Shown: in pieces, positions 671-13,955 of the stretch
How positions within the stretch are numbered: position 1 is the first letter of the stretch
Layout of the letters: each line of letters starts with the position of its first letter
Assembly: GCF_003334765.1 (NCBI RefSeq)
Contig: NZ_QOWT01000055.1
Length of the DNA stretch: 13,955 nucleotides
Reading direction: 5' to 3' (one strand)
DNA from: Escherichia coli
GTDB lineage: Bacteria > Pseudomonadota > Gammaproteobacteria > Enterobacterales > Enterobacteriaceae
Position numbers and translations under genes: made by a program
The notes under the pieces: generated by a model
Told to the model about the DNA's origin: nothing
Seen by the model: the letters and a program-made list of their open reading frames with translations, nothing else
The model's database searches: none

Positions 671-3067
671 ATGCACGAAAAGAACATCGCCCTGCTTTGT
701 GATGAAGCCGACCGACTTTTGCAACTGAACATTAATCTGCTCCGGCAAATGGTTGAGGAGCCAGATGTGTTATCTGACAGTAAGAACGAAAACAGACTGC
801 TTTTTGATAAACAGAAAGCACTGAAAAGAATTGAGGAGCTGGAGGGCGAACAAATCAAAACCGCCCGCAGGGAGATGGTGCTGGCTGTTGTCGGCACGAT
901 GAAAGCAGGCAAATCAACCACCATCAATGCCATTGTGGGGCAGGAAATTCTGCCTAACCGTAACCGCCCCATGACCTCTGTACCGACGCTCATCCGCCAC
1001 GTTCCCGGAAAAACTGAGCCGGTTCTCCATCTGGAACATATTCAGCCTGTCCGCAATTTATTAATCACACTGCAGGAAAAACTCGCCACCCCGGCAGGAC
1101 AGCAGGTCGCACAGACCCTGCAGCAAACCGGGGATACCCGCGAACTGCTGGATATTCTGACGGATGATGGCTGGCTCAAAAATGAATACCACGGGGAGGA
1201 GGAAATCTTTACCGGACTGGCATCGTTAAACGATCTGGTTCGTCTTGCTGCGGCAATGGGGACTGAATTTCCTTTTGATGAATACGCAGAAGTGCAGAAA
1301 CTGCCGGTGATCGACGTGGAATTCAGCCATCTGGTGGGGATGGATGCATGCCAGGGAACACTCACACTGCTGGATACCCCCGGCCCTAATGAGGCCGGAC
1401 AACCGCAGATGGAAGTGATGATGCGGGATCAACTGCAGAAAGCCTCTGCGGTTCTGGCTGTGATGGATTACACCCAGATGAACTCAAAAGCGGATGAAGA
1501 CGTCCGTAAAGAGCTTAATGCCATTGCTGACGTATCAGCCGGCCGCCTGTTTGTACTGGTCAATAAATTTGATGAGAAAGACCGCAATGGCGATGGGGCA
1601 GATGCCGTACGCCAGAAAGTTCCGGCAATGCTGAACAGCGATGTGCTGCCCGCCTCCCGCGTTTATCCCGGATCCTCACGCCAGGCATACCTGGCTAACC
1701 GTGCGCTTCATGAGTTACGGAAAAACGGAACCCTTCCTGTTGATGAAGCCTGGGTCGATGATTTTATCAGAGGTGCCTTCGGTTGCATGAAAAAAGAATA
1801 CGTCTGTAAAGACAGTGAACTGGCAACTGAAGGGGCGACAGACCTGTGGGAAGGCTCACTTATCGATCAACTGATAACGGAAGTCATACAGAGCTCACAT
1901 TCCAGAGCTGCGGCACTGGCGGTTGACTCTGCCGCCGCAAAACTGATGCAGAATGCAGAAAATATCAGTGAATACCTGTTGTTACGCCATCAGGGGCTAC
2001 AGCAAAGCATTCAGTCACTGCAGTCGCATATCACCAGCCTGCTTGCGGATATCCGGGAAATCGCGGACTGTCAGGAGCAGATGACCACTGATGTCAGAAT
2101 GGCCATGGAGGAGATCGATACTAAAACCCGGGAATTACTGACGGGGGTCTGCACCTCACTGGAAGAGGAGCTGAATGACTATTTCAGAAGCGGTAAACGC
2201 AAAGAACAGCAAATGCTGGAGGAAGAAGACGCAGAACAACGAAGGTCTCAGTCCGGATTATGGGGGAAAATTTCTCAATGGTCCGGTATCAACAACCAGG
2301 GCCGGGAGGATTACAGGAAACGAGATTTTGCCCCGGACAGCCCCGAAATAAAATTCAGTGATCGCAGGGAAGCCCTTGAACTGATGACGCAAATCGAATC
2401 GACCGTGACCAGCCTGCACCGTGAGGCTGAAGCACAGTTCCGGCCTGAGCTGGAGAAAATCGTCAGCGGGATTGAAACAGGTTTTCGTGGCACGGCCCTG
2501 TACGCCACAGAAAACATTGCCGGTCGCATCAATGCCCGCCTGGAGGATGAGGGCTTTACCGTAAAAATCAGTTTTCCGGCAGTCAGCCAGTTACAGACCC
2601 GGCTCGCGGTAAAAATAAATCTGAGTGCGCTTATGGAGGAAAGAACGGAGACCGTCACCCGTCGCCGTCGGCAGAGTGGCGTATGGGGAACCGTTTGTCG
2701 ATGGTTTGGCACCAGTGACCTGGGCTGGGAAAACTATGACGAGGATGTGAGTCGCAGCGTGATCAATATCAACAAGGTCAGAGAGGAAGTTATGTCACTG
2801 ACCCGGGCATATTTCGGGGAGCTGCAGGCATCCATTGAGCAGGATATTAACCAGCCCGTCCGCCAGGAAATCGATGCCTTTTTCTGCGCATTCAGGGAGA
2901 AAGTTGAACAACTGCGTAACACGCTGATTCAGAGCTCTGAGGATCATAAACGCGATCAGCAGGCGCAGGAACGACTTACCGGGCGACTTCAGGCATTAAA
3001 TGAAAGGGTTCCTGAGCTCATTACTGACAGTAAGGCGCTGAGGGAAGAGCTGGAGACAATGCTGTGA
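671..3067 (+). CDS. Bacterial dynamin-like GTPase, paralogue of CrfC/RdcA (YjdA), 798 aa
   Basis: Long ORF with an AGGAAGG Shine-Dalgarno at 656-662. G1 GTMKAGKST is at aa 75-83 (nt 893-919), G3 DTPG at aa 235-238 and G4 NKFD at aa 298-301. The N-terminal GTPase region (LAVVGTMKAGKSTTINAIVGQEILPNRNRPMT...) closely resembles E. coli CrfC as I remember it. A long helical stalk and a C-terminal coiled coil follow. Confidence 0.9.
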   Translation: MHEKNIALLCDEADRLLQLNINLLRQMVEEPDVLSDSKNENRLLFDKQKALKRIEELEGEQIKTARREMVLAVVGTMKAGKSTTINAIVGQEILPNRNRPMTSVPTLIRHVPGKTEPVLHLEHIQPVRNLLITLQEKLATPAGQQVAQTLQQTGDTRELLDILTDDGWLKNEYHGEEEIFTGLASLNDLVRLAAAMGTEFPFDEYAEVQKLPVIDVEFSHLVGMDACQGTLTLLDTPGPNEAGQPQMEVMMRDQLQKASAVLAVMDYTQMNSKADEDVRKELNAIADVSAGRLFVLVNKFDEKDRNGDGADAVRQKVPAMLNSDVLPASRVYPGSSRQAYLANRALHELRKNGTLPVDEAWVDDFIRGAFGCMKKEYVCKDSELATEGATDLWEGSLIDQLITEVIQSSHSRAAALAVDSAAAKLMQNAENISEYLLLRHQGLQQSIQSLQSHITSLLADIREIADCQEQMTTDVRMAMEEIDTKTRELLTGVCTSLEEELNDYFRSGKRKEQQMLEEEDAEQRRSQSGLWGKISQWSGINNQGREDYRKRDFAPDSPEIKFSDRREALELMTQIESTVTSLHREAEAQFRPELEKIVSGIETGFRGTALYATENIAGRINARLEDEGFTVKISFPAVSQLQTRLAVKINLSALMEERTETVTRRRRQSGVWGTVCRWFGTSDLGWENYDEDVSRSVININKVREEVMSLTRAYFGELQASIEQDINQPVRQEIDAFFCAFREKVEQLRNTLIQSSEDHKRDQQAQERLTGRLQALNERVPELITDSKALREELETML

Positions 3068-4467
3068 CTTCACCATTTATTCAACAAATTGCTGATAACC
3101 GGGTATGTCAGGTACTCACCTGTCTTCCTGAAAAATTTGTGGTTGATTTCGCAAACGGAATCGATGTTGCACAGGAGCATATCCGCACGGCCGGAGAGCG
3201 CACGTTCTTCCGGCGTTTAAAAGAGGGGCTGACCGGCGAAGGCGCTGCACGGCAGAATGCCATCAATGCGTCGCTTGCACAGGGCGTTGAGGCGTCCCTG
3301 CGCTGGCTGACGGAGATGACAACGTCACTTGCCACCACAAACTACGCGATTACCCAGGTAAACGACAGGGTCAGTTCACTGGTCAGTGATACAGCCAGGC
3401 TGGCGCATTATTCCGCAGATACGCGGGAGCAGTTACTCACCCTGGCCGATCAGGTTCACCATAAACTGAATCATCTTGAAGAAAAACTCCACCGTGTTGA
3501 CCAGGTTCAGCGGGCGCAGTTACATCTTGAGCAGATATTCTCATGGTGGAGCGCCGGGCGATATGCGTCATTTTCCCCTGCCGGACGTTGTTATGTGGCA
3601 CTTGAAGAGCTTCGCTGGGGCGCGTTTGGTGATGTGATACGTCAGGGCGAAACAGGCCAGGTTAACCAGCTACTGGATATTCTCAGACATAAAGCATTAA
3701 CGCAGATGGCACAGGAGAGTGGCGGTAGTGCAACCGTGCGTCTGAACACTCTGGACTGGCTTGGTGGTCAGGGCCGGGAGCAGGCAGATAACGAGTGGCA
3801 TGACGCGATTAACTGGCTGGGAGACTGGTGCAGTGAAGAGCAGCATCCGGTGACCCGTGTGCGCGACCCGGGCCGCCGGGGATACACAAAACACATGCTG
3901 CGTCTGCGGCGGGCCGGAGAGATAAACGGAGAACATGTCCCTGAAATTATTCTGCTCAACTCTCATGACGGTACCTCCAGCTACCAGATGCTGCCGGGTT
4001 ACTTCAGGTTCGTCTGCCAGAACGGGTGCGTCTGTGGCCAGTCTCTGGGGGAAGTGCGTGTTCCACACCGGGGAAATGTAGTGGAGAAAGTTATCGAAGG
4101 GGCTTACGAGGTGGTGGGCGTGTTTGACCGGATAGAGGAGAAGCGTGATGCCATGCAGTCGCTGGTCCTGCCGCCACCGGCACGCCAGGCGCTGGCACAG
4201 GCGGCACTGACTTACCGTTATGGTGACGAACATCAGCCCGTCACCACCGCCGACATTCTGACGCCGCGACGCCGGGAGGATTACGGTAAGGACCTGTGGA
4301 GCGCATATCAGACCATCCAGGAGAATATGCTGAAAGGCGGGATTTCCGGTCGCAGTGCAAAAGGAAAACGTATCCATACCCGGGCCATTCACAGCATTGA
4401 TACCGACATTAAGCTCAATCGCGCATTGTGGGTGATGGCAGAAACGATGCTGGAGAGCCTGCGCTGA
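3064..4467 (+). CDS. Chimeric ORF: RdcB/YjcZ-like dynamin-partner domain (aa 1-263) fused in frame to the C-terminal ~204 aa of a DUF932 protein (YfjQ/YafZ family)
   Basis: The GTG start overlaps the upstream stop as GTGA (3064-3067), implying translational coupling. From nt ~3853 (TRVRDPGRRGYTKHMLRLRRAGE...WVMAETMLESLR) the translation matches the YfjQ/YafZ family from about residue 70 to the end, as I recall it. The N-terminal part is coiled-coil rich (RQNAINASL..., YSADTREQL...) like the YjcZ partner encoded next to crfC. Confidence 0.8.
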   Translation: MTSPFIQQIADNRVCQVLTCLPEKFVVDFANGIDVAQEHIRTAGERTFFRRLKEGLTGEGAARQNAINASLAQGVEASLRWLTEMTTSLATTNYAITQVNDRVSSLVSDTARLAHYSADTREQLLTLADQVHHKLNHLEEKLHRVDQVQRAQLHLEQIFSWWSAGRYASFSPAGRCYVALEELRWGAFGDVIRQGETGQVNQLLDILRHKALTQMAQESGGSATVRLNTLDWLGGQGREQADNEWHDAINWLGDWCSEEQHPVTRVRDPGRRGYTKHMLRLRRAGEINGEHVPEIILLNSHDGTSSYQMLPGYFRFVCQNGCVCGQSLGEVRVPHRGNVVEKVIEGAYEVVGVFDRIEEKRDAMQSLVLPPPARQALAQAALTYRYGDEHQPVTTADILTPRRREDYGKDLWSAYQTIQENMLKGGISGRSAKGKRIHTRAIHSIDTDIKLNRALWVMAETMLESLR

Positions 4468-4548
4468 TGCCGTTTCCCTGAGTGAGGGAATCATTCAGCT
4501 TTCGTTCCTGAAAAACACACATTTATTTGTTATTTAAGGAGTTATCTC

Positions 4549-5028
4549 ATGAAAACCGTTTCTCAGAATACCCCCACAATTTATTCAGCTACAACACCAG
4601 AGAATAATCCGCCTCAGTTGGTTGCCAGCCTCGTCCCTGATGAACAGCGCATCAGCTTCTGGCCGCAGCATTTTGGCCTCATTCCACAGTGGGTGACCCT
4701 GGAGCCCCGTGTCTTCGGCTGGATGGACCGTCTGTGCGAAGACTACTGCGGTGGTATCTGGAATCTGTACACCCTGAACAACGGCGGGGCATTTATGGCA
4801 CCCGAACCGGATGACGATGATGGCGAAAACTGGGTACTGTTCAATGCCATGAACGGTAACCGCGCTGAAATGAGCCCGGAAGCCGCCGGCATTGCCGCCT
4901 GTCTGATGACGTACAGTCATCATGCCTGTCGTACGGAGTGTTATGCCATGACGGTCCATTATTACCGGCTGCGGGATTACGCCCTGCAGCATCCGGAATG
5001 CAGCGCCATTATGCGCATCATCGACTGA
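4549..5028 (+). CDS. Antirestriction protein (YfjX/YafX family, ArdB/KlcA-like)
   Basis: 159-aa ORF with an AAGGAG Shine-Dalgarno at 4536-4541. The sequence and its position between DUF932 and the RadC-like gene are typical of CP4-type islands. Confidence 0.85.
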   Translation: MKTVSQNTPTIYSATTPENNPPQLVASLVPDEQRISFWPQHFGLIPQWVTLEPRVFGWMDRLCEDYCGGIWNLYTLNNGGAFMAPEPDDDDGENWVLFNAMNGNRAEMSPEAAGIAACLMTYSHHACRTECYAMTVHYYRLRDYALQHPECSAIMRIID

Positions 5029-5043
5029 ATGGAGGCAGGGACA

Positions 5044-5520
5044 ATGCAACAACTTTCCTTTCTGCCCGGAGAGATGACGCCCGGCGAGCGCAGCCTCATT
5101 CAACGGGCCCTGAAAACCCTGGACCGCCATCTTCATGAACCCGGCGTGGCCTTCACCTCCACCCGTGCAGCACGGGAATGGCTGATTCTGAACATGGCGG
5201 GACTGGAGCGTGAAGAATTCCGGGTGCTGTATCTGAATAACCAGAATCAACTGATTGCCGGTGAAACCCTCTTTACCGGCACCATCAACCGCACGGAAGT
5301 CCATCCCCGGGAAGTGATTAAACGCGCCCTGTACCACAATGCCGCTGCCGTGGTACTGGCACACAATCACCCGTCCGGTGAAGTCACACCCAGTAAGGCA
5401 GACCGGCTTATCACCGAACGTCTGGTACAGGCACTGGGCCTGGTGGATATCCGGGTGCCGGACCATCTGATAGTCGGTGGCAACCAGGTTTTCTCCTTTG
5501 CCGAACATGGTCTGCTTTAA
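5044..5520 (+). CDS. yeeS: RadC-like JAB/MPN domain protein (YeeS/YkfG/YfjY family)
   Basis: JAMM-type motif HNHPSGEVTPSKAD. GGAGG at 5031-5035 lies 8 nt before the ATG at 5044 (MQQLSFLPGE..., the N-terminus I remember for this family). The ORF track's earlier ATG at 5029 is an alternative start. Confidence 0.9.
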   Translation: MQQLSFLPGEMTPGERSLIQRALKTLDRHLHEPGVAFTSTRAAREWLILNMAGLEREEFRVLYLNNQNQLIAGETLFTGTINRTEVHPREVIKRALYHNAAAVVLAHNHPSGEVTPSKADRLITERLVQALGLVDIRVPDHLIVGGNQVFSFAEHGLL

Positions 5521-5582
5521 CCCGTCACAACCACATCACACCTGTTTTCACTTTTATCTTCTGTCTTCAGAGGTATCCCATT

Positions 5583-5804
5583 ATGAAAATTATCACCCGT
5601 GGTGAAGCCATGCGTATTCACCAACAACATCCGACATCCCGTCTTTTTCCGTTCTGTACCGGTAAATACCGCTGGCACGGCAGTGCTGAAGCGTATACCG
5701 GTCGTGAAGTGCAGGATATTCCCGGTGTGCTGGCCGTGTTTGCTGAACGCCGTAAGGACAGTTTTGGTCCGTATGTCCGGCTGATGAGCGTCACCCTGAA
5801 CTGA
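5583..5804 (+). CDS. yeeT: DUF987 protein YeeT
   Basis: The 73-aa ORF (MKIITRGEAMRIHQQHPTSRLFPFCTGKYRWHG...) matches K-12 YeeT/YkfH family length and sequence from memory. Its position is conserved. Confidence 0.9.
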   Translation: MKIITRGEAMRIHQQHPTSRLFPFCTGKYRWHGSAEAYTGREVQDIPGVLAVFAERRKDSFGPYVRLMSVTLN

Positions 5805-5877
5805 GTGGGAATTCTGATGAGCAGAATTATCGCCACTACCGGACCATTCTTAGCCGATTTTCTGTAAGGATTTTATC

Positions 5878-6246
5878 GTGTCAGACACACTCCCCGGGAC
5901 AACACTTCCCGACGACAATCACGACCGCCCCTGGTGGGGGCTGCCCTGCACCGTGACGCCCTGTTTCGGGGCACGTCTGGTGCAGGAGGGTAACCGGTTG
6001 CATTACCTTGCCGACCGCGCCGGTATCAGAGGCCTGTTCAGCGATGCAGATGCGTACCACCTGGACCAGGCCTTTCCGCTGCTGATGAAACAACTGGAAC
6101 TCGTGCTCACCAGCGGTGAACTGAATCCCCGCCATCAGCATACCGTCACGCTGTATGCAAAAGGGCTGACCTGCAAAGCCGATACCCTCAGCAGTTGTGG
6201 TTACGTTTATCTGGCTGTTTATCCGACGCCCGAAATGAAAAATTAA
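5878..6246 (+). CDS. cbeA: Type IV antitoxin CbeA (YeeU)
   Basis: 122 aa with a GTG start and an AAGGA Shine-Dalgarno at 5866-5870. The sequence is near-identical to K-12 CbeA as recalled (SDTLPGTTLPDDNHDRPWWGLPCTVTPCFGARLVQEGNRLHYLADRAG...). Confidence 0.95.
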   Translation: MSDTLPGTTLPDDNHDRPWWGLPCTVTPCFGARLVQEGNRLHYLADRAGIRGLFSDADAYHLDQAFPLLMKQLELVLTSGELNPRHQHTVTLYAKGLTCKADTLSSCGYVYLAVYPTPEMKN

Positions 6247-6334
6247 CTCTCCAGAATAGCCTTCTGCTACGGCCTGGTGTTTTCACCACGCCACTTTTCC
6301 ATTTTTATATCTGCATATCAGGAAAATCTTCAGT

Positions 6335-6709
6335 ATGAAAACATTACCTGTATTACCCGGGCAGGCGACCAGTTCTCGCCCGTCTCCTGTTGAAATCTGG
6401 CAGATACTGCTGTCCCGACTGCTGGACCAGCACTATGGCCTCACACTGAATGACACACCTTTTGCCGATGAACGTGTGATTGAGCAGCATATTGAGGCAG
6501 GCATTTCACTGTGTGATGCGGTGAACTTTCTCGTGGAAAAATACGCGCTGGTGCGTACCGACCAGCCGGGATTCAGCGCCTGTACCCGCTCTCAGTTAAT
6601 AAACAGCATCGATATCCTCCGGGCTCGCAGGGCGACCGGCCTGATGACCCGCGACAATTACAGAACGGTAAATAACATTACCCTGGGTAAGTATCCGGAG
6701 GCGAAATGA
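6335..6709 (+). CDS. cbtA: Type IV toxin CbtA (YeeV), inhibitor of FtsZ/MreB polymerisation
   Basis: 124 aa (MKTLPVLPGQATSSRPSPVEIWQILLSRLLDQHYGLTLNDTPF...), near-identical to K-12 CbtA as recalled. It lies immediately downstream of cbeA. Confidence 0.95.
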   Translation: MKTLPVLPGQATSSRPSPVEIWQILLSRLLDQHYGLTLNDTPFADERVIEQHIEAGISLCDAVNFLVEKYALVRTDQPGFSACTRSQLINSIDILRARRATGLMTRDNYRTVNNITLGKYPEAK

Positions 6710-6900
6710 TGACACTGGAAGCCGACAGCGTTAACGTACAGGCGCTGGATATGGGGCACATTGTCGTTGACATTGATGGTGTTAATATCACTGAACTGAT
6801 TAATAAGGCCGCTGAAAAAGGTTATTCACTCCGCGTGGTGGATGACCGTGACTCTACCGAAACACCGGCAACTTATGCCAGCCCTCACCAGTTGCTGTAA
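6706..6900 (+). CDS. yeeW: YeeW-family small protein
   Basis: 64-aa ORF whose start overlaps the cbtA stop as ATGA (6706-6709). It matches K-12 YeeW/YpjJ family length and position. Confidence 0.8.
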   Translation: MMTLEADSVNVQALDMGHIVVDIDGVNITELINKAAEKGYSLRVVDDRDSTETPATYASPHQLL

Positions 6901-7314: not shown

Positions 7315-7450
7315 TTATTTATTGGTGAGAACTACGTTCCATGGCAGGAGTTCGTCAACACGGTTGGAGGGCCATTCCGGCAGTATGCTCAGAATATGGC
7401 GCAGATACGCTTCCGGATCGATACCGTTCAGACGGCAGGTGCCTGCTTTT
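7315..7450 (-). mobile_element. C-terminal remnant of an IS66-family transposase
   Basis: The minus-strand translation ...GTCRLNGIDPEAYLRHILSILPEWPSNRVDELLPWNVVLTNK* ends at the TAA at 7317-7315. This is the characteristic C-terminus of IS66-family TnpC proteins. The upstream boundary is approximate. Confidence 0.7.
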
Positions 7451-7469
7451 CCGGCAACAAGCAGGAATC

Positions 7470-7697
7470 TCAGCGCTGAAGCAGGAATTAGAGGTAAAAA
7501 CGCCCTACCGGGCCATGAATCACCCGGTCATTGGAGTAGTAACCAAAGCAGATTTAGCCAGCATGGAACAAATATCTTTGGTGAAAAGTTGGTTACGGGA
7601 AGCTGGAGCGCACAACGTGTTAGTAACCAGTGCAGTTAATAACAATGGAGTTACAGAACTTTTTGCCTTGCTGCATACAGAAGAAGGCTGTTGTTAA
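7470..7697 (+). pseudogene. yoeF: C-terminal fragment of a EutP/PduV-family GTPase (yoeF-like pseudogene)
   Basis: The translation ...YRAMNHPVIGVVTKADLASMEQISLVKSWLREAGAHNVLVTSAVNNNGVTELFALL... resembles the C-terminal half of PduV/EutP. No P-loop N-terminus is present. The upstream part of the 118-aa ORF is antisense to the IS66 remnant. The start coordinate is approximate. Confidence 0.65.
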
Positions 7698-7797: not shown

Positions 7798-8127
7798 TTA
7801 CTTCGCTTCGCCGTTTTTCATTTCGCCCATAGCTTTCAGCTTTTTGGAGATATCGCGGCGTTCTTTGGAGAGCTCGGCATTTTTGATGATGTAATCGTCA
7901 ACGCGATCTTCATAGTCACCTTTCATGCTGGCGATGATGCCCTGGATTGCTTCAACGCTCATCCCTGGCTTGATGTAATCGCTCAGGTTGTCCAGCAACA
8001 GGACGCGCTTCTGGTTGTCACGGATCTTTTTCTCAACGTCCTGAATTTCACGTTGCAGTTTGTTCTTACGACGGAACAGACGAACAAATTCCAGTACGTC
8101 CTGGAATGAAGGCTTGGTAGTTTCCAT
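7798..8127 (-). CDS. yeeX: UPF0265/DUF496 protein YeeX
   Basis: The translation [39 protein letters not shown]... (109 aa) matches K-12 YeeX. The ORF track's 131-aa version starts at an upstream ATG (8193) that I consider less likely. Confidence 0.9.
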
Positions 8128-9357: not shown

Positions 9358-9554
9358 GCAGAAACTCCGTAATGAAGATTAAAAGCGCTCATAACTCATC
9401 TGTCGGCCAGAAGGCGCGCCTCTGAATTATCCGACGGACAAACCGGGAACAGTGTAATTTCCCGGCAGGAGCGAAAAAATTGAAAGGCGCATCTTACTCT
9501 TTTCGCTTTCAAAAAAAGAGTGGTCTTCGCGTCAACACACCGCCCTGAGATGAA

Positions 9555-11521: not shown

Positions 11522-11570
11522 ATGATGAATGACGGTAAGCAACAATCTACCTTTTTGTTTCACGATTACG
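11522..11570 (+). pseudogene. sbcB: 5' stump of sbcB (exonuclease I), truncated after codon 16 by an insertion
   Basis: ATGATGAATGACGGTAAGCAACAATCTACCTTTTTGTTTCACGATTACG encodes MMNDGKQQSTFLFHDY, the N-terminus of K-12 SbcB. The expected continuation ETFG... is replaced by AQYP and a TGA at 11582-11584. The divergent position relative to dacD is as in K-12. Confidence 0.85.
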
Positions 11571-11624
11571 CGCAATACCCCTGAGAACCGCCATGAACAA
11601 GGGTTTCATGATTTGTGATTTTAG

Positions 11625-11648
11625 TTTGGTACGCAATTTGGTACGCAA
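11625..11648. repeat. Tandem direct repeat 2 x TTTGGTACGCAA
   Basis: Exact 12-bp units at 11625-11636 and 11637-11648, about 55 bp inside the foreign DNA from the sbcB junction. Confidence 0.9.
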
Positions 11649-11887
11649 CACTATTTTCACTTCAGCGGGTAGTCATCAAACTCACCATAACGAGCATCGT
11701 TGATGATGTATGCGATCACCACAAATATCACATCTGGACTAGTTCCGTCTTCATGCGCAGGTATCTGTTCACGCCTCCCTTTCTGCAAATCCTAAAGATG
11801 AGATTTTGGGGTTTTGGGATATCTTTTTCTCCTCAGTTCTCTATCCATTCTACAAAGCAGTAATGAACCATCACTATGTGAAAGTGA

Positions 11888-11959
11888 GGCATCCGCTACA
11901 TTAAGCGCAGAGAAATGATGCAGTGGTGGGCGGACTGGCTTGATGAAAAGGTGGAGTGA
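11888..11959 (+). pseudogene. 3' remnant of a P4-type (IntA/IntS-like) tyrosine integrase
   Basis: The in-frame translation GIRYIKRREMMQWWADWLDEKVE* carries the RR.MMQ.WADYLD C-terminal signature of P4-family integrases. An in-frame TGA lies immediately upstream (11885-11887). No catalytic domain is present. Confidence 0.6.
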
Positions 11960-12411
11960 ACCACCTTAGCTATCGAATGACACAAAGCCTTGTAATCCAG
12001 TGCAAAGTCTTGTGTGCCTCAGTTTTGTCTAAGCGTTCTACTGAAACATAGTAAAATCGATAACGGCTGGAGATCATTCAATATCCGCACTATTGACTCC
12101 CCTCCAATAAACCGTGTAACGTACACCGTTTATAAGACAACCAAACAATAATAGAGCGAGTGAAATCATCAGTCTCAAATACCATTTATTGACGCAATAC
12201 TATCCAGTTCTGAACTAAATGACATAATTCGGTAATTAAATTAATGCATCGACATACCTTATAGATACGCCCCAATAATATAATGCTAATCCTCTTTGAA
12301 TAGAAAACGTTCAATACTCCTCACTAAATAGCATAGTATTTATATCTTCCCTTACAAAAAAAATTAAGGCATAATAATAAGCTTCCTTTAACGCTAGATA
12401 TTGAGGTTTGT

Positions 12412-12540
12412 ATGTATCGCAGCATCGCAGCATTTAACACATTTTGCTTTTCATTGGTATTTATTTCATTAGCAAATGATATATATTACCAATTAAAACA
12501 CTCGTCATCTCTCAATACATATATTTCCTATGCATTTTGA
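12412..12540 (+). CDS. 42-codon ORF with one hydrophobic segment, in the same frame as the downstream 359-aa gene (possible severed N-terminus)
   Basis: GAGG at 12403-12406 lies 5 nt before the ATG. The translation is MYRSIAAFNTFCFSLVFISLANDIYYQLKHSSSLNTYISYAF*, with TGA at 12538-12540. Only three sense codons (GGG ATT GCC) separate that stop from the ATG at 12550, in the same reading frame. Confidence 0.35.
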   Translation: MYRSIAAFNTFCFSLVFISLANDIYYQLKHSSSLNTYISYAF

Positions 12541-12549
12541 GGGATTGCC

Positions 12550-13629
12550 ATGACATACAATACTATATTCAAAATATACATCTCAATTTTCATTTCTGTT
12601 ATTGTCACTATAATAGCCATATCCGGTATAACATTCCTGGGGGACAACTGGATTATTCCAGACACATATCATCTATTTAATACTGCAAAATATGATACCA
12701 CATTTTCACTCAGCGATATTTATTCCCAGCATAAAACATCTGTTTTATTTCTCTTTATAAACAAAGTGCTCTATAGCATAGGGTTATATTCTTTCTGTAT
12801 CGCGAACACAGCAATGATTATCTATGCTTTTTTCAAACATCACGAAGACCGTAGATTTTGTTTTGTGTTTTTGGTTTTGTCACCTCTATTTTTCATTAAT
12901 ATACCGTTACCATCCAAAGATATAATGGTGACATTTCTTTTTTGCATATGGGTATATGCAGTTTACTCTGAGGCAAGCCTGACAAAAACAATCCTGCTGT
13001 CTTTAATCATCCTATTAGTTAGAGATGGCTTTGGGATAATTTTAATTGCCACTTCAATTATCTTAAAACAAAAGATAATATATAAAGCACCAATACTACT
13101 GATTATAATAGCAACTCTCATCGCATCTTTAATATCGGATGTTTTGCCTAACTATGCAAATGACTTTTTTCTGTTCCAGAGAGTAATTGATATAGCCAAT
13201 GAATATAATAGTTCAAGTTATATTCTTCGTATATTTGGGAATGTAACAAATTTCTCATCACGCAACCCATTGATTACTGATAAGTCCACATTAAACATTA
13301 CATTTATGTGCTATACAATCACGGGAGTTACTATATTGAGTACATTCCTTCTTTCAATTAAAGCAATACGTTCAAATTATAAAAGTGATGTCAGAATATC
13401 ATTTTGTTATTTTTTAATTACCATTGCTTTTTCTATTTCACCACTTATTCAAGCAAGATACATGGCTCCGTTAATTTTAATGCCGACATTTTATAAGTGT
13501 ATTTCAAAAAAAGATGTCTTTATTTGCTATATGGCAAGCATATTTATCTCAATAATATTATCATTATTATATGTATATTTAGGTGTTTACCCTGAAAAAG
13601 CACCAGTGGAAAACTTTACAATAAATTAA
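12550..13629 (+). CDS. Polytopic inner-membrane protein (about 10-12 predicted TM segments), function unknown; Wzy/EpsG-like or GT-C/GtrC-like surface-polysaccharide enzyme is a hypothesis
   Basis: An uninterrupted 359-codon ORF in very AT-rich DNA, where random stops are frequent. GAGGGA at 12539-12544 lies 5 nt before the ATG. Hydrophobic stretches alternate with short charged loops, plus two larger loops (aa ~31-64 and ~200-250). No acyltransferase-3 N-terminal motif was seen. Confidence 0.8.
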   Translation: MTYNTIFKIYISIFISVIVTIIAISGITFLGDNWIIPDTYHLFNTAKYDTTFSLSDIYSQHKTSVLFLFINKVLYSIGLYSFCIANTAMIIYAFFKHHEDRRFCFVFLVLSPLFFINIPLPSKDIMVTFLFCIWVYAVYSEASLTKTILLSLIILLVRDGFGIILIATSIILKQKIIYKAPILLIIIATLIASLISDVLPNYANDFFLFQRVIDIANEYNSSSYILRIFGNVTNFSSRNPLITDKSTLNITFMCYTITGVTILSTFLLSIKAIRSNYKSDVRISFCYFLITIAFSISPLIQARYMAPLILMPTFYKCISKKDVFICYMASIFISIILSLLYVYLGVYPEKAPVENFTIN

Positions 13630-13646
13630 CAAGAGAAAACCACCTA

Positions 13647-13696
13647 TGGCACCATCTCACAATAATAATATGATAAACATATTAGAGATGGTGCTA
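13647..13696. terminator. Stem-loop between convergent genes (possible shared terminator)
   Basis: GCACCATCTC (13649-13658) and GAGATGGTGC (13685-13694) are exact reverse complements, extendable by T-A and G-T pairs. The loop is 26 nt and AT-rich. No clear U-tract. Confidence 0.35.
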
Positions 13697-13747
13697 CTCC
13701 GAGCCACCCACAAGCAACACATTGAATTTATTCCAAAATAATTCATC

Positions 13748-13955
13748 TTATACTTCATAAAGGGCAGGCCAGATGACATCAGGCGCGGTGCTGGTATCTG
13801 TTGCCGCCACCGCGTCAATGTAATCCAGCACAGCGTTAAGCCGGGTGGTTTCTGCCTGCGTCAGCTTCCGCCCGGCCTGTAATTTCAGCTGAATCAGACT
13901 GATGGAAGCCATTGCAGCATCAATCAGCGACTGGCGCTTTACTTCTGCCGCGTCT
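13748..13955 (-). CDS. Phage tail fibre assembly protein (Tfa family), C-terminal 68 aa (5' end outside the window)
   Basis: The minus-strand translation is DAAEVKRQSLIDAAMASISLIQLKLQAGRKLTQAETTRLNAVLDYIDAVAATDTSTAPDVIWPALYEV*, with stop at 13750-13748. The ...L..W..Y...L..VDTSTAPDI.WP ending is the hallmark of TfaE/TfaQ-type chaperones. Confidence 0.8.
   Translation of the reverse strand, partial: DAAEVKRQSLIDAAMASISLIQLKLQAGRKLTQAETTRLNAVLDYIDAVAATDTSTAPDVIWPALYEV

Follow-up and report, generated by a model that had tools for sequence, protein, structure and literature searches.

An rdcB–DUF932 fusion in an Escherichia coli CP4-44-type island very probably arose through one recent deletion of 2856 bp

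Does an uninterrupted open reading frame (ORF) that joins parts of two gene families encode a new kind of two-domain protein, or is it what a deletion has left behind? This question is raised by a 13,955-nucleotide stretch of Escherichia coli DNA (contig NZ_QOWT01000055.1 of assembly GCF_003334765.1; hereafter, the window), which holds a CP4-44-type island locus with the order yeeP ... yeeS-yeeT-cbeA-cbtA ... yeeA-sbmC-dacD. The original prediction, made from the letters alone, had described one continuous 467-codon ORF at 3064–4467 on the plus strand and read it as the N terminus of a dynamin partner (RdcB) fused to a 5′-truncated DUF932 gene. The ORF exists as described and begins with a GTG codon that forms a GTGA overlap with the stop codon of the 798-amino-acid dynamin gene upstream; its product is identical to GenBank entry CAM3814923.1 (“hypothetical protein ESCO106035_23100”). 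We consider it highly probable that a recent deletion of 2856 bp, in a single event, left this ORF as its scar; the module to which the dynamin gene belongs was most likely disabled by it, and the chimera is probably without function.

Profile searches with Pfam placed each half in the expected family. Residues 26–267 of the chimeric protein match YjcZ (PF13990; profile positions 1–243 of 272, E = 1.3e-56, 192 bits vs a cut-off of 27), in agreement with the proposed resemblance of the first ~263 residues to YjcZ/RdcB, while residues 263–456 match DUF932 (PF06067; profile positions 35–227 of 227, E = 8.3e-43, 147 bits vs a cut-off of 23), so that DUF932 similarity is indeed present in the C-terminal half. 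Neither domain is complete. The chimera is not a full-length YjcZ protein because the last 29 profile positions are absent, including the W265 ... MPRLCSAxRL ... EIF block, and it is not a complete stand-alone DUF932 protein (~270 amino acids) because profile positions 1–34 are absent, compared with coverage of positions 2–227 in the intact DUF932 parent. In its place, directly after and coupled to a gene for a dynamin-like GTPase, it does correspond to the RdcB family.

To map the junction, we compared three sequences, namely the window and, from the homologous loci in strains O145:H28 RM13514 (L002), S1-INA-02-A (L003), and S1-SRL-01-C (L005), the rdcB side and the DUF932 side. The rdcB-derived part (3064–3853, plus strand) comprises nucleotides 1–790 of a 906-nt gene, i.e., residues 1–263 of 301 without the last 38, and shows one mismatch to rdcB of RM13514 and none to that of S1-SRL-01-C. 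The DUF932-derived part (3852–4467, plus strand) comprises nucleotides 207–822 of an 822-nt gene, i.e., residues 70–273 without the first 69, and is 100% identical to the DUF932 genes of S1-INA-02-A and S1-SRL-01-C. Compared base by base, the sequence switches from rdcB to DUF932 at ORF nucleotides 789/790 (window 3852/3853), and sharing between the two parental sequences at this point is limited to the dinucleotide GA (3852–3853, plus strand). Both the suggested start of collinearity with DUF932 residues 70–273 at nucleotide ~3853 and the suspicion of microhomology around 3845–3860 were therefore accurate. The G of this dinucleotide is the third base of rdcB codon 263 as well as of DUF932 codon 69, which is why the join is in frame and yields RdcB 1–263 followed by DUF932 70–273. 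Illegitimate recombination at the 2-nt microhomology very probably joined rdcB nucleotide 790 to DUF932 nucleotide 207; the retention of the frame would then be luck, with a chance of one in three. The fused ORF carries no substitution relative to the parental parts in S1-SRL-01-C, and the dynamin gene is likewise 100% identical to the one in that strain; therefore, the deletion is recent. A 265-codon ORF on the minus strand (3697–4494), antisense to the DUF932-derived part, is most likely open only by chance, lying across from coding sequence.

The DNA that once separated the two genes is preserved in relatives. The best complete-genome matches to the window (99.7–99.8% identity) consist of two collinear pieces that span 16,810 bp vs 13,955 bp in the window, and in S1-SRL-01-C the 2856 extra bases lie exactly at window 3852/3853 and constitute the sole large difference. 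The gene order in this strain is GTPase, dynamin (798 amino acids), RdcB-family protein (301), patatin-like phospholipase (356), two hypothetical proteins (227 and 136), and DUF932 (273), followed by antirestriction, RadC/YeeS, YeeT, CbeA, CbtA, and YeeW and, farther on, by TmaR, YeeA, SbmC, and DacD. The 2856-bp segment contains rdcB nucleotides 791–906, the phospholipase gene, the two hypothetical genes, the intergenic regions, and DUF932 nucleotides 1–206. It had been anticipated that the partner gene lost its 3′ end, the DUF932 gene its 5′ end, and the island all that lay in between, and this is what the comparison shows. In S1-SRL-01-C, rdcB and the patatin gene overlap by 4 nt. Two terminator-like hairpins also lie inside the deleted segment, one just 3′ of the phospholipase gene (8056–8072 of the S1-SRL-01-C locus) and a strong one that has 13 pairs together with a T-run and lies just upstream of DUF932 (9423–9452).

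How common is the fused form? Among 5426 complete E. coli genomes, 1114 hold at least 80% of the window in one place. None of the 5426 covers a query of 301 bp with the junction at its centre; every match ends there. An exact-match probe over the junction, the 38-mer GAAGAGCAGCATCCGGTGACCCGTGTGCGCGACCCGGG, had no match in a one-genome-per-species collection or in metagenome contigs of the Joint Genome Institute (JGI). Among ~15 billion sequences, the exact 467-residue protein has a single record, CAM3814923.1, encoded on a contig of 18.7 kb in GCA_965137835.1. The junction in this contig (L006) is identical, although the contig stops at window position 12438 and mismatches the window at 30 clustered positions, with one indel besides; the scar is thus found in at least two assemblies. 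Full-length two-domain homologs, which by the original prediction would have refuted a strain-specific fusion had they been widespread, are thus not widespread.

Homology searches gave the same picture at the protein level. Stand-alone RdcB of ~301 amino acids forms one cluster of 4088 members, and stand-alone DUF932 of 272/273 amino acids forms clusters of 18561, 7588, and 2275 members. Fusions that involve either family are scattered, in clusters of one or two sequences each, and their partners include dynamin, an Ag43/pertactin-type autotransporter, an ESPR signal peptide, RadC, antirestriction, DUF987, and patatin. As the stand-alone parents are abundant and the fusions sporadic, the two-domain form is not a native architecture but one of many deletion products. 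An independent RdcB–DUF932 fusion, P0017 (328 amino acids), is encoded at 5551–6537 of a locus (L007) in another strain (GCA_013057765.1), in an island adjoining ghrA. Its junction differs (rdcB nucleotide ~289, DUF932 nucleotide ~110), and the dynamin gene of that island is truncated too.

Several further sequences came up in these searches. P0027, from an ENA assembly, is a dynamin–RdcB–DUF932 chimera, and both it and P0017 break RdcB within about one codon of Ile96/Thr97. The many small-cluster fusions suggest either that CP4-type islands often suffer small deletions or that paralogous islands have been joined into chimeras during assembly. The top-scoring database match, P0016 (471 amino acids, from a metagenome set), was rejected as a homolog of the fusion, being a scrambled repeat of DUF932 segments. 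An apparent match of “100% coverage” in strain Nissle 1917 was rejected as well; it runs from a DUF932 gene into the rdcB copy that follows in a tandem duplication. In this strain (L001, NZ_CP007799.1, 261346–279232), the rdcB-patatin-...-DUF905-DUF932 block is tandemly duplicated, with a partial dynamin remnant between the copies. YeeR of E. coli K-12, located at the equivalent CP4-44 place, is not a similar fusion, as it has no Pfam match and no DNA similarity to that part of the window.

Could the chimera still serve as an RdcB protein? In E. coli K-12, RdcB (YjcZ) is an accessory protein of RdcA, a dynamin-like GTPase, and takes part in activating the diguanylate cyclase DgcE (PMC6510439, PMC13463826). 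The interface predicted to bind RdcA includes the C-terminal helix and arginines of RdcB, and reversing the charge of the arginines in this interface eliminated both interaction and function (PMC13463826). The N-terminal 263 residues of the chimera belong to the same Pfam family as K-12 RdcB, and K-12 rdcB follows rdcA as island rdcB follows the dynamin-like GTPase gene, with a 4-nt overlap. With 27% identity, however, the two RdcB proteins are paralogs rather than equivalents, and island RdcB, unlike its K-12 counterpart, is a member of a three-gene operon with a phospholipase. The MPRLCSAxRL...EEIF block is recognizable in K-12 RdcB but missing from the chimera. An alignment of 20 family proteins from E. 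coli, Pectobacterium, Klebsiella, Yersinia, Morganella, and Lelliottia revealed 17 invariant positions within RdcB residues 265–296 (among them W265, S266, T268, L274, P275, R277, M278, P279, R280, S283, A284, E285, R286, M291, E294, and F296), all of which are absent from the chimera. By analogy with the K-12 interface, dynamin binding by the chimera is probably lost at least in part.

The DUF932 half is affected in a similar fashion. DUF932/UPF0380 proteins of CP4-type islands, such as K-12 YfjQ and YafZ, are encoded by stand-alone genes upstream of an antirestriction-RadC-DUF987-CbeA-CbtA block. The C-terminal 204 residues of the chimera are 100% identical to a common 273-residue E. coli DUF932 protein (P0044), and the gene order downstream is the standard one for such genes. 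In contrast to them, the remnant has lost its own upstream region and would be translated only at the end of the rdcB frame, and it lacks the invariant DUF932 block L54–Q69. Since both truncations remove invariant residues, the chimera probably works neither as RdcB nor as DUF932 and would be a functionless by-product. The case for damage to the folds is built on conservation and not on the AlphaFold2 models. For the intact RdcB parent, these are mostly helical, with a long helix at 59–164 (predicted local distance difference test, pLDDT, ~77–90), at a low mean of 62.9 and with an especially weak C terminus; the earlier description of the first ~263 residues as rich in coiled coils fits the helical character and is only loosely supported at this confidence. 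The model of the DUF932 parent (pLDDT 48) was unusable, and profile searches of the PDB found no solved structure related to YjcZ/RdcB or DUF932.

The consequences reach beyond the chimera itself. The dynamin-family GTPase gene (671–3067, plus strand; 798 amino acids; Pfam Dynamin_N, E = 2.8e-18) is intact and is the first gene of a dynamin-RdcB-patatin operon. Its product is a paralog of K-12 RdcA/CrfC, with 33% identity in BLASTP and 556 bits in the equivalog model NCBIfam NF007368, for which the cut-off is 1146. According to an earlier description, the dynamin-RdcB-phospholipase genes of E. coli islands form a co-regulated operon, which was put forward there, though not tested, as a phage-defence module (PMC12922286). 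The same families occur in the same order in the undeleted relatives S1-SRL-01-C, Nissle 1917, and RM13514, whereas the window lacks the phospholipase gene and retains rdcB only as a truncated, fused part. Because the native rdcB start, coupled to the dynamin stop, was kept, the chimera is probably still translated whenever dynamin is. Nevertheless, the three-gene module is most likely disabled and the intact dynamin gene orphaned, since the phospholipase, encoded by the third, translationally coupled gene and the only enzyme-like partner, is gone. Its loss settles the question of module function more firmly than the fusion does.

PADLOC-DB 2.0 contained no match for the chimera, intact RdcB, or DUF932 and does not list the dynamin module as a system. 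It returned weak matches of the dynamin to LeoBC (E = 8.6e-5 over 60 residues) and of the deleted patatin to “Effector phospholipase” (E = 1e-4). Literature searches turned up neither work on the function of DUF932 nor, apart from PMC12922286, a paper on a dynamin-patatin defence system. The first intact gene past the scar encodes an antirestriction protein (4549–5028, plus strand; 159 amino acids; Pfam Antirestrict, E = 6.9e-37). The deleted form has no terminator-like site between the dynamin operon and this gene, and transcripts of the dynamin operon probably continue into antirestriction-radC-yeeT-cbeA-cbtA because both terminator-like hairpins were deleted.

Other explanations of the fused ORF were weighed against this deletion. 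That it encodes a functional new two-domain protein, kept by selection, in which the RdcB part brings DUF932 to dynamin or the reverse, appears very unlikely to us. The idea gains from the open frame, the retained coupled start, the presence in two assemblies, and the existence of the independent fusions P0017 and P0027. Yet one random deletion in three would keep the frame, and the other fusions have different junctions and one or two sequences per cluster amid many sporadic DUF932 fusions, a pattern of decay rather than of a selected architecture. Moreover, both halves lack invariant residues, no divergence has accumulated since the event, and the junction is missing from all complete genomes screened. 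One would have to suppose a stable chimera that associates with the island dynamin through its helical RdcB part and carries the DUF932 core to the membrane, gaining a new activity or acting as a dominant negative on paralogous dynamin-RdcB modules at other places in the genome, while loss of the phospholipase effector could have been selected as relieving a cost; we see very little chance of this. Points that do weigh against our reading are that loss of function is read from sequence conservation, that the N-terminal 69 residues of DUF932 may not be essential, and that the two assemblies with the junction might derive from one strain or one read set.

A further rival holds that the strain really has the intact arrangement and that errors of assembly or sequencing produced the junction. 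In its favour, the locus is one of a family of paralogous islands in which repeats are common (matching places per genome number 3 at the median and 19 at most), and the clustered differences from S1-SRL-01-C and GCA_965137835.1 could reflect repeat collapse. Mis-assembly is argued against by the second assembly, which has the identical junction together with different flanking polymorphisms and a different cbtA allele, and by the overlap of only 2 nt, which offers no repeat or k-mer overlap to mislead an assembler; we therefore regard an artefact as highly improbable. We give practically no credence to the reverse course of events, in which the fused form is native and ancestral and separate genes arose by insertion of the 2.9-kb segment. 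No support for it was found; the separate genes encode both Pfam domains in full, whereas the fusion has each of them cut short, and stand-alone RdcB of ~300 residues with the conserved C terminus occurs in Pectobacterium, Klebsiella, Yersinia, Morganella, and Lelliottia, the C terminus being conserved also in K-12 RdcB. A recent deletion thus remains the reading that we prefer.

Additionally, we noted several features of the surrounding island. A search of the window against Rfam gave no match. Single-nucleotide polymorphisms (SNPs) relative to S1-SRL-01-C and GCA_965137835.1 are clustered at 17–168 (13 SNPs, at the end of the GTPase gene) and at 4823–5524 (17 SNPs, antirestriction/radC); outside these two clusters, the window is identical to S1-SRL-01-C over ~12 kb. 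The clusters have the look of gene conversion, with paralogous islands as donors, or of assembly differences tied to repeats. The toxin gene cbtA (6335–6709) is intact in the window, with 124 amino acids. A 1-nt deletion at position 6555 shifts its frame in S1-SRL-01-C, which is without the 2856-bp deletion, and in GCA_965137835.1, which has it, and cbtA is annotated as frameshifted in S1-INA-02-A; the distributions of the frameshift and of the large deletion are not congruent. Next to it, yeeW (6706–6900) is a 64-residue N-terminal fragment of DUF5983, a sign of island decay, and a PduV/EutP-type GTPase fragment lies at 7341–7697, as in K-12 CP4-44. Within 11570–13955, similarity to K-12 ends 49 nt into sbcB. 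Past this break, ~540 bases match the attachment-site end of the lambdoid phages mEp234 and 2851 and of several Stx phages (91–96% identity), and tail-fibre-assembly and integrase genes are found farther on in S1-SRL-01-C. A prophage thus appears to be inserted in sbcB.

Chimeric ORFs are known as products of microhomology-mediated deletions in decaying prophages and islands, and the scar is a typical example, sharing with them the 2-nt microhomology, the origin in a single event, the truncation of both partners, the rare, lineage-specific spread, and the lack of later divergence. The feature is an ordinary, rare, lineage-specific deletion scar of this type and no new kind of protein. The 467-residue “hypothetical protein” is best read as a fusion pseudogene and matters mainly for annotation and for the gene content of the strain. 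In other E. coli, dynamin-RdcB-patatin is a candidate module for defence or membrane stress; in this strain it should be counted as broken, even with its dynamin gene intact. More generally, these results point to the region from dynamin to DUF932 in CP4-type islands as prone to sporadic deletions, and the chimeric ORFs that such deletions create can inflate counts of “novel domain architectures”.

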